Of a DNA stretch of 64,000 nt, positions 23,638 to 46,647 are shown piece by piece. Position numbers and translations under genes: made by a program. The stretch spans positions 130,572,001 to 130,636,000 of the forward strand of contig OZ024745.1 in the NCBI GenBank assembly GCA_964016885.1. The letters are read 5' to 3'. Below the pieces are notes generated by a model, which saw nothing but the letters and a program-made list of their open reading frames with translations, was not told the DNA's origin and made no database searches. Origin of the DNA: Eledone cirrhosa (lineage: Eukaryota). Numbering within the stretch: the stretch's first letter is position 1; every line of letters begins with the position of its first letter.

Positions 23638-23978
23638 CGTTTCTGAATTTGTTTAGCAAGATTCTTTATCTGAAATCGTGTGTTGAAACCGATATTGTTA
23701 TACTTTGGGAGGGTCATGTTGCCAATAAGAAACACACGCACCAGTTGCTTTCACTTCAATTTATTATATATTTATAAAGAAAGGAATCCCCAGTCACTGA
23801 AGAGGTCACAGAGTGTGTGACGAAAGAACTATGACTATATATAAACAACTATCTGGTTGTGGAACCAACCAACCAACCAGAAATTTATAAATATGTAAAT
23901 TTATAAATATATAATAAATTGAAGTGAAAGCAACTGGTGCGTGTGTTTCTTATTGGCAACATGACCCTCCCAAAGTAT

Positions 23979-36513: not shown

Positions 36514-36752
36514 TGTTTACAAGGGCAAGAATGAAGGGCTCATTCTACTGACAGGGCTTTAAAAATGAGGCTTGTTTGCATAATTGCAAACGAATTGAAT
36601 GTTATTATTAATATTCGAAAAATATTCGAAAAATACATTTATTGTATTCAGAGAGAAAATGTGTTTCTTATATATATACGTACACATATATATATATATA
36701 TATATAAAATAAGATAAATATGTCAAATGTTTAAAATTTAGCTTCGTTTATT

Positions 36753-36807
36753 ACTGCTATATATATTTCGGTGACAACCATCTTTGGCTGTGACCTCTTC
36801 AGGCAGT
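36753..36807 (-). ncRNA. Minimal type-I hammerhead ribozyme motif, family F
   Basis: Minus strand ACTGC-CTGAAGA-GGTCACAGCCA(aaga)TGGTTGTCACC-GAAA-TATATA-TA-GCAGT: intact core, perfect stem I, palindromic stem III. Confidence 0.88.
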
Positions 36808-36980
36808 CCGAATTAGTTTGGTATAGACAAGTACATATGTTGTTGAGGTGTATAACTTTGTCAATACTCTGATATGCCCCGTTCCTGGTTGGGTTGTTAT
36901 TTCACTGAGGAACTGGAATCATAATCTGGAATCATAAACTGGAATCAATATATATATATATATATAAAGTAATAATAATA

Positions 36981-37516: not shown

Positions 37517-37657
37517 TGTCTGTCTGTGTGTGTGTATATATATATAAGAAACAAATTTTCTCTCTGAATACAATAAATGTATTGGATTCCTTGAAATATA
37601 TATAATACAATAAATATGGTTTTATAAATATAATTTACATATATTTAATATCATTGA

Positions 37658-37734
<77 letters not shown>

Positions 37735-42345: not shown

Positions 42346-42362
<17 letters not shown>
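41646..42362 (-). mobile_element. Non-autonomous Helitron-like element
   Basis: Minus strand starts TATATATAAAACTGTAGTTGTCTGTGTG and ends CCCGAGCAATGCCGGACCATTTTGCTAG|T. The same 3' end occurs at 61068-61140. Confidence 0.7.
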
Positions 42363-42384
<22 letters not shown>

Positions 42385-42394
<10 letters not shown>

Positions 42395-42728
42395 AGAACA
42401 AAAGATGGTTAAAAGAGTTCCATGTATTTTATTATGCGCATTTCAAAAACAAATATCATCATGCAATAATATTTGTGTTTTCATCAGATAAAACAGGAAG
42501 ACATGATATGAAGGTTAAAAACACCTGTGGATAGTTCAGTTTCAAATCAACATATTGATATGTTGATTTAAAACTGAACTATCCACAGGTGTTTTTAACC
42601 TTCATATCATGTCTTCCTGTTTTATCTGATGAAAACACAAATATTATTGCATGATGATATTTGTTTTTGAAATGCGCATAATAAAATACATGGAACTCTT
42701 TTAACCATCTTTTGTTCTTATATATTAT
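42385..42728. mobile_element. Near-perfect 344-bp palindrome (family G) with a hammerhead in each arm
   Basis: Arms are reverse complements around a 2-nt centre (42556-42557). I see one mismatch (TTTCAAATC vs GATTTAAAA). Confidence 0.92.
42618..42688 (+). ncRNA. Type-I hammerhead ribozyme motif (mirror copy on the minus strand at 42425-42495)
   Basis: TGTTTTAT-CTGATGA-AAACACAAATATTATT(gcat)GATGATATTTGTTTTT-GAAA-TGCGCA-TA-ATAAAATA. Stem III is the palindrome TGCGCA. Confidence 0.88.
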
Positions 42729-42801
42729 GTATACTCCAGTCCTACAAACTGTAGAGTGCTTCTTATCCGATATCTGCATTGCTTTACAATAAAACTCACC
42801 T

Positions 42802-42894
<93 letters not shown>

Positions 42895-44114: not shown

Positions 44115-44489
44115 GTAGAAGTTGTATTTAATTTGTTGGAAGTCCAACAAACATAAATGTTTATAACTTATTTAGAGCACTCAACAAGTTACTGGAGTAA
44201 ATGTTCCATGATATTAAATAAATGGAAGCTATATTTATAAAACCATATTTATTTTATTATATATATTTCAAGGTCAATTAAGACAACATTGGTGCGCTTT
44301 CATCAGATAAAATACAAAGTTTGTTTTATAAATAGAGACGTACCCATGAACATTCTACCTTATCGGTTGGAAATTCACTGGATTGTATTTTATCTGATGA
44401 AAGCGCACTAATGTTGTCTTGGTTGCCCTTGAAATGTATATAATAAAATAAATATGGTTTTATAAATATAGTTTCCATTTATTTCATAT

Positions 44490-44494
<5 letters not shown>
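44115..44494 (-). mobile_element. PLE pLTR (about 44115-44377) followed by an inverted partial copy (44383-44494); HHR motifs at 44250-44314 (-) and 44386-44450 (+)
   Basis: TATTTTAT-CTGATGA-AAGCGCAC...GTTGCCCTT-GAAA-TGTATA-TA-ATAAAATA. Homologous to 45773-46038 and about 37589-37656. Confidence 0.82.
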
Positions 44495-45772: not shown

Positions 45773-46038
45773 GTAGAAGGGGTATTTAATTTGTTGGAAA
45801 TCGGACAAATCTAAATCTAAATGTGTATAACTGATTTAGAGCACTCAACAAGTTCCTGGAGTAAATATTCAATGATATTAAATAAATGTAAACTATATTT
45901 ATAAAACCATATTTATTTTATTATATATATTTCAAGGGTACCAAAACACTTTGGTACGCTTTCTTCAGATAAAATACAAAGTTTGTTTTATAAATAGAGA
46001 TATACCAGGAAAAAAATACCTTATTAGTTGGATATTCA
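45773..46038 (-). mobile_element. PLE pseudo-LTR
   Basis: Diverged direct repeat of 44115-44377 with the same boundaries. Abuts the RT fragment. Confidence 0.8.
45914..45976 (-). ncRNA. Type-I hammerhead ribozyme motif in the pLTR
   Basis: Minus strand TATTTTAT-CTGAAGA-AAGCGTACCAAA(gtgt)TTTGGTACCCTT-GAAA-TATATA-TA-ATAAAATA. Confidence 0.88.
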
Positions 46039-46361
46039 AAAATGTTTTTATTAGCGGAGATGCATGAAATCCGTTTTTGGACACAATTGATAATAGTGTT
46101 CTTGATAGATCTAGGATGATTAGAGTTAAAACTTACATAGTTTAGATTCTCATTAATTTCATGGAATGGATAGTAGAGCCCTGTGTTAAGGTTTAATGTT
46201 AGGTCTAAAAAGTTAACAATTTTATAGTTATTCTCTATTTCTAACTTAAGGTTGTAGTTATTGAAGAATTGTATTATGGATTTTCTTTTCCTATTAATTT
46301 CACAATTACTATGATTTTCAATTAAAAGCAGCAAATCATCACGATATAAACCACCGGTCAT
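46036..46361 (-). pseudogene. Penelope-like element reverse transcriptase fragment (catalytic motif to thumb)
   Basis: ORF 45921-46361: GLYRDD ... VNFLDLTLNL ... YVSFNSNHP ... KRISCIS, characteristic PLE RT motifs. 5'-truncated, no GIY-YIG. Confidence 0.9.
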
Positions 46362-46647
46362 CTCTGGTATTTGATATATATATATTTGATATTTGATATC
46401 AAATATATCATCTCTGGTTTTTTATATATATATATATATCAAATTACAAAATATGAGGAAATAATAGACAAGAATATACCTATCTTTTCTTCAAGCTATA
46501 TATATATATATATATGTGTGTGTGAGTATGTATGTGTGTATGTGTGTGTGTGTACGGGTGTGGGGACTGTGTATGCGTGTATTTTCTTATGTGTATTTAT
46601 AAATATCTTATAGACACATATATACGTGTAAATCTTATATTTATTAA

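Follow-up and report, generated by a model that had tools for sequence, protein, structure and literature searches.

A near-perfect palindrome in a 64,000-nucleotide stretch of Eledone cirrhosa DNA (the window) is one of at least 1,600 palindromic stumps of this kind in the genome, and represents the hammerhead-bearing end (pLTR) of an abundant Penelope-like retrotransposon (PLE). Partner arms in this family share their alleles, as a rule only one of the two carries a tail, their inner ends pile up at one position (+1), and many arms have an extra G before it. We consider it probable, at roughly two chances in three, that such head-to-head insertions in (TA)n are made from a single sense RNA, uncut and likely capped: reverse transcription would be primed by both cut strands, each at its own internal site, and the resulting cDNAs would be joined at the RNA 5′ end. 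The window locus itself is of a known kind and unremarkable within it, a common mobile-element product that needs no function.

The palindrome and its hammerhead motifs

The window is microsatellite-rich animal DNA from an assembly of 3.0 Gb. The two arms of the palindrome, 171 bp each, are reverse complements of one another with a single mismatch (C at 42543, A at 42570) around a centre of 2 nt, in agreement with a preliminary description of the locus. The features are listed in Table 1; family positions are numbered so that the C of the native CATATG is 0. The limits first given to the element (42385..42728) proved too short, as the right arm runs on into a tail of 77 nt. The left arm has no tail, and (TA)n, within which a target-site duplication is not discernible, adjoins both outer ends.

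Table 1. Features of the palindromic insertion, in window positions
Feature	Position	Strand	Basis
(TA)n run, left side of insertion target	42350..42387	.	(TA)n at 112/124 sampled family arm ends
Untailed arm, pLTR +1 to about +172; outer end is the inner predicted reverse-transcription start	42385..42555	-	Arm comparison
Type I hammerhead layout, mirror image of that on the plus strand; cut predicted between 42433 and 42432	42427..42493	-	Motif layout
Junction dinucleotide TG; G at 42557 in place of the native C before +1, likely cap-derived	42556..42557	.	
Tailed arm, pLTR part, +1 to about +172	42558..42728	+	
Type I hammerhead layout	42620..42686	+	Motif layout
Tail, family +173 to +257, 8 nt deleted here; 5′ UTR start in ORF-linked copies	42729..42805	+	
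(TA)n run, right side of insertion target	42804..42893	.	

Folded as RNA, the palindrome gives one hairpin (predicted −276 kcal/mol, z = −38, 0/100 shuffles as good), which upholds the earlier prediction that the ribozyme would lie buried in a long hairpin in a read-through transcript; a role of that transcript as Dicer or ADAR substrate, also proposed earlier, is putative. The extra G discussed below suggests that transcription starts at the centre; in that case, each RNA would carry the sense arm only and no hairpin would form. A microRNA precursor was considered and rejected, the best Rfam match (54.5 bits, with 95 required) being a generic hairpin match.

The least credible of the explanations weighed here is a fold-back artefact of library or assembly, a possibility which the preliminary description had raised. 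The mirroring halts where the element ends and the flanks are unrelated (12–19 of 50 matches beyond 200 bp), the tail is found on one arm only, and the arms differ by one base. Contigs of run X1, which may not be independent of the assembly, show inverted joints onto 42557–42560 from many positions. On the other hand, in four runs no read or contig bridges the exact junction together with its own flanks, the matches coming from the family at large.

Both strands have the layout of a type I hammerhead. On the plus strand, stem I (42620–42625 with 42681–42686, TTTTAT/ATAAAA) encloses the core CTGATGA (42626–42632), stem II (42633–42668), GAAA (42669–42672) and stem III (42672–42679), and the cut is predicted after AUA at 42680. 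Stem II has 15 pairs (3 + 12) with one C-U mismatch, some G-U pairs and a 4-nt loop; about 16 bp had been given earlier. Stem III is the 8-nt palindrome ATGCGCAT, which pairs between two copies in a co-fold of two ribozymes, so its characterization as palindromic and suited to dimers holds. These parts correspond to the type I minimal PLE hammerhead (core CUGANGA, GAAA and NUH, stems I and II, palindromic helix III) as set out in the parts of PMC4209133 cited here. On motif layout, the hammerhead may be called intact and self-cleavage is predicted. However, the isolated ribozyme folds no better than its shuffles (z = −1.2), and an Rfam search of the window gave nothing at the gathering score and no hammerhead among 73 weak matches; the claim of one intact ribozyme per strand is thus retained with regard to layout.

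Ribozyme-cut RNA was dropped as a candidate template because 5′ ends show no clear pile-up at the predicted cut site (family position +125). There were 175 matches at this site and 127 at a control two bases on; with 11/30 of the matches being true junctions at the cut site and 11/30 at the control, about 64 and 47 junctions are estimated, respectively. Since both arms span the cut site, the ribozyme appears to be a passenger in the window insertion. In a single case, locus L246 (G000:C1:331692657-331695685), segments in both orientations start at +124/+125, that is, at the predicted cut site, and are joined after 350 nt of 5′ UTR plus ORF; a mini-circle or a template jump is possible.

The parent element and its copies

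A similarity search of the organism's own genome with one arm revealed copies at 94–99% on many contigs, and nine of the first 30 loci run upstream into a common 3′ UTR and ORF end. At locus L067, an intact ORF of 798 aa with RT and GIY-YIG lies between two arm copies. The unit is 3,710 nt long, including a 3′ UTR of about 1 kb. In the family layout, the arm (+1 to +172) is followed by a tail of 85 nt (+173 to +257) and an ATG near +343, and where copies stand in tandem, the tail forms the beginning of a 5′ UTR that extends to the ATG. FDIAS, GxMG, YRDD and IYE..YFG motifs are present in the L067 ORF. Its product has 37 homologues (E 1e-64 to 1e-129), several of them with PF26215 and one with PF00078; the ORF itself had no match in Pfam or PDB sequence searches. 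The window copy has no ORF; the ORF is found in other copies of the family.

Set beside published families by their descriptions, the element is a Penelope-like retrotransposon with Hydra-clade motifs. As in EN+ Penelope-like elements, a single ORF joins RT to a C-terminal GIY-YIG nuclease (L067), partial tandem copies give rise to pLTRs (204 tail-to-5′ UTR junctions genome-wide; an upstream partial copy in L067 and in 27 of 28 ORF-linked loci), and inverted 5′-truncated copies have a tail at one end (44 of 48 sampled pairs, and the window copy). Among Hydra motifs, the L067 protein has RLRWI, DKT, CNCPVKNKC, CNLC and CLH and is without CCHH. It reads RWI where all five aligned homologues have RWK, and its GIY-YIG core contains no conserved pair of cysteines. 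The (TA)n target of the Hydra clade adjoins 112 of 124 sampled arm ends (5 of the remaining 12 run into 5′ UTR), and its hammerhead is recognized here by layout. Between RT and nuclease (L067:2646-5039, minus strand, residues about 590–650), there is an N/T-rich insert of ~50 aa that is absent from the five aligned homologues; N-rich inserts are known in rotifer Penelope elements (PMC3846280, in the parts cited here).

Two other classes were rejected. A non-LTR retrozyme consists of head-to-tail hammerhead units, whereas the arms here are joined head-to-head and represent one end of an autonomous element. With regard to a MITE or DNA foldback element, the outer ends are asymmetric and the inner junctions differ among copies.

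The exact ribozyme 35-mer has 13,629 matches in the genome, and 1,613 head-to-head junctions were found at the same turn-around, near +1. These 1,613 junctions do not support a reading of the structure as rare or special, and, in the comparison of turn-around points that had been proposed, the junctions differ between copies. From the 13,629 35-mer matches, the first 100 listed were taken, and pairs were sampled at the 68 loci that contain these, because picking by likeness to the window was to be avoided. All of the sample lies in the first 47.6 Mb of a single contig, and at least one arm had to contain the exact 35-mer. It contained 48 head-to-head pairs, the remainder being single arms or tandems; four seeming single arms actually have a very short tailed partner. 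Two palindromic insertions lie 1.4 kb apart at one locus (L016), and two identical insertions lie 16 kb apart (L057/L058), probably through local duplication.

Further insertions of a related type are present in the window. A second head-to-head insertion in (TA)n, at 44124–44492, is of a different hammerhead family; its arms are about 82% alike and one of them has a longer tail-like outer extension. The same family occurs at 45782–46421 (minus strand), where a pLTR with the core CTGAAGA is joined to an RT fragment that shares 53% identity with the L067 ORF. The likeness in stem I to the RT-linked element at 45914, pointed out earlier, is real, and the kinship holds, but the family is a different, related one. 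A short single stump of it is found at 37589–37684 (plus strand), and hammerhead-like motifs of another family (CTGAAGA, short stem II, GAAA) are found at 23789–23850 (plus strand) and 36750–36810 (minus strand).

Paired arms, the turn-around and the proposed origin

One tailed and one untailed arm were found in 44 of the 48 pairs (43 of 48 by a second pairing rule). The remaining four, which break this rule or are unclear, are counted against the proposed origin: two are two-tailed, one was scored as having no tail (an arm is cut by the locus end) and one is unclear. Inner ends span −3447 to +208 and differ between partners. Among the 44 mixed pairs, the untailed arm extends further 5′ in 25, the tailed arm in 9, and the two are equal (within 5 nt) in 10. 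Thus, in 25 of 44 pairs each arm has sequence that its partner lacks, the tail being on one only, so that neither arm can have been copied from its partner by fold-back. This argues against a post-insertion fold-back of a single cDNA, or a palindromic master copied whole, with later gene conversion, as does the fact that junctions vary from copy to copy. The two rare variants that the window arms have in common (G at +31 and a shorter T run) would agree with such an event, which we nevertheless regard as very unlikely.

Partner arms stem from one source. At 16 subfamily sites, partners were discordant in 15 of 531 comparisons (2.8%); random re-pairing raises this to 35.6%, with 26% as the lowest value in 1000 shuffles. 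When all sites are counted, the difference between partners is 1.5%. It is 1.8% (49/2682) in short palindromes and 1.0% (21/2028) between arms 0.6–5 kb apart, the latter figure leaving out one doubtful pair (L189); the likeness of long pairs is favoured here, as these were oftener picked via exact matches in both arms. Short palindromes are no more alike than distant arms, and gene conversion between close arms was not seen, which also speaks against the fold-back or master-copy explanation. One difference in 171 positions is typical of a young copy and does not call for gene conversion. Of the earlier reading of the palindrome as a recent event, the young age is kept, whereas a simple cDNA fold-back and ongoing gene conversion are abandoned. 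An A-to-I hot spot at +31, suggested by G/A differences in 10 of 34 pairs from the similarity search, was rejected: genome counts (G in 46 arms, A in 10,640, with G at 21 for a neighbouring control) identify it as an ascertainment artefact.

A common source is also compatible with double priming on two separate RNAs of one locus, held together by protein or by a ribozyme dimer. The same 172 nt are often copied in both arms, an extra G may be present on both arms (as in L199/L200), the PLE protein is a predicted dimer in the parts of PMC11167929 cited here, and stem III pairs between two copies in the co-fold. However, given the many subfamilies, freely drawn RNAs would lead to ~36% discordance and not 2.8%, so a single source is needed, and tailed arms often end near +160 to +180, as if meeting a second primer on the same RNA. 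We consider two RNAs improbable, if the least so of the alternatives; in these copies, a single RNA that had been read twice would look the same as two RNAs from one source.

Inner ends fall at −1 to +3 in 30 of 96 cases. Arms also end at +1 when the partner stops far off, so that +1 behaves like a feature of the template itself. In the native sequence, the turn-around has a pyrimidine run followed by C-A, which we take to resemble a polymerase II initiator. Immediately before +1, 2,253 arms have G and 637 have A, the native base being C; joinable sequence contains 19–24% G and 39–42% A, that is, about half as much G as A. Of 30 G-bearing arms examined, 11 were tailed and 19 untailed. For 9 of these 30, a script traced the G to the partner arm as template, 6 of the 9 being readable as the partner's native C, and three further G junctions look templated by eye, which weighs against the proposed origin. 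In L1, an untemplated extra 5′ G has been ascribed to copying of the mRNA cap (PMC9341517, in the parts cited here), and the G at 42557 is likely cap-derived by analogy. At L205, L209 and L210, the first 8–9 nt are repeated ahead of the extra G, which suggests repeated copying of the RNA 5′ end.

Self-priming of antisense RNA, which Arkhipova et al. (2013) put forward for Penelope copies of rotifers (PMC3846280, in the parts cited here), is to be weighed against these junctions. It holds that the 3′ end folds back at a short ATAT palindrome and is copied to a hairpin, which is then integrated. The native turn-around is indeed a short palindrome, on which about half of the junctions listed overlap perfectly, the alleles are common to both arms, and at the inner end one arm often lies within the span of its partner. 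However, self-priming gives no reason for an extra sense-strand G before +1, nor for arms that stop at +1 though the partner stops tens to hundreds of bases off. It leaves the fixed outer ends at two sites unaccounted for, and pairs such as +170..+257 with +1..+172 hardly overlap. For the present copies we judge it unlikely.

According to the origin that we favour, priming at two sites of one sense RNA, the GIY-YIG nuclease of the element would cut both strands in (TA)n. One 3′ end would prime at +257 and yield the tailed arm, the other at +172 and yield the untailed arm, and both cDNAs would extend toward the RNA 5′ end, the second pass requiring strand displacement or a sister RNA of the same source. 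The cDNAs would be end-joined with 0–6 nt of microhomology or a few added bases. The arms would then be nearly identical because they share a template and are young, and the window copy would be a case in which both cDNAs got to the RNA 5′ end. In vitro, both target strands were cut and extended by a PLE protein, which began synthesis at two internal RNA positions, one at either end of the tail, and used mainly uncut RNA (PMC11167929, in the parts cited here). The copies fit a direct extension of this result, in which each cut side primes at one site.

It was also predicted that full-length copies would have their start at +1 with G, but they do not: of 28 distinct ORF-linked tandem loci, 16 run upstream of +1, 11 start downstream, one has no upstream piece, and not one begins at +1 itself. 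This is counted against the proposed origin. The RNA behind long copies would thus lack that 5′ end, so that one capped template is not enough to explain every member of the family. A longer, multimeric or circular RNA must be the source of long copies, and the stumps themselves may supply most of the short capped RNA. We would give even odds to a wider proposal, namely that the inverted ends of PLEs form when two target-primed cDNAs from the tail-bounding sites of one capped sense RNA meet at the cap, and that the mini-palindromes are a self-renewing non-autonomous class. Among the matches listed in the open literature, we found no account of PLEs that combines double priming with a cap-derived G.

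Relation to known systems and meaning

The comparisons below refer to the cited parts of each paper. C-terminal EN+ PLEs of the Hydra clade (Craig et al., 2021, PMC8557442), including Hydra-1_Obim, are like the present family in their single ORF with RT and GIY-YIG, their RW, DKT, CxCX5C, CxxC and CxH motifs without CCHH, their pLTR hammerhead and (TA)n target, and their insertions, which may be tandem or inverted and have one tailed end. The family differs from them in its unit of 3,710 nt (owing to the 3′ UTR of about 1 kb) where the clade is generally <3 kb, a general tendency and not a strict criterion in that paper. Its tail has 85 nt and not 30–40 bp, RWI stands for RWK, and the N-rich insert precedes the nuclease. 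One octopus Hydra family is included in the supplement of the same paper. Penelope of Adineta vaga and Drosophila virilis (PMC3846280, PMC2377424) also has head-to-head inverted pLTRs with a palindromic junction, a one-end tail and an initiator-like start inside the pLTR. Unlike in these species, there are thousands of copies here, many without any ORF, and they favour double priming on sense RNA over the antisense self-priming proposed there.

In Anolis Poseidon in vitro (Frangieh et al., 2024, PMC11167929), as proposed here, two internal RT starts bound the tail, both target strands are cut and extended, and ribozyme cleavage is unneeded. The start sites there are inside the ORF, whereas here they are upstream of the ATG (about +343), and the cited parts of that paper do not connect this pair of start sites with the pair of arms in inverted insertions. 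L1 twin priming (PMC11702581, PMC9341517) resembles the proposed origin in that a second DNA end primes on the RNA, leading to an inversion joined by microhomology, and in the G opposite the cap. However, L1 inversions consist of adjacent, barely overlapping parts of the RNA, whereas the arms here often copy the same stretch, and a true palindrome results. Animal non-LTR retrozymes (bioRxiv 10.64898/2026.07.22.740005) are likewise short and non-coding, with a type I hammerhead from PLE pLTRs, but are head-to-tail repeats, unlike the head-to-head window insertion.

Several elements of this picture are already in print: one-tailed inverted pLTRs, PLE hammerheads with a palindromic helix III and low activity, and Hydra insertions in (TA)n. 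The origin of PLE inverted ends is called open in the cited parts of PMC8557442 and PMC3846280. On this question the family provides thousands of junctions that separate the models by the one-tail rule, the extra G and the shared alleles, and it gives the exact sites +1, +172 and +257. Such palindromes should not be taken for designed antisense switches, nor be annotated as MITEs or microRNA hairpins. If the wider proposal is true, +1-to-tail copies would carry the promoter and both start sites, and the mini-palindromes would be a class that outnumbers ORF-linked tandems about eight to one. If read through, at least 1,600 near-perfect hairpin templates would be a possibly sizeable source of dsRNA in one genome.
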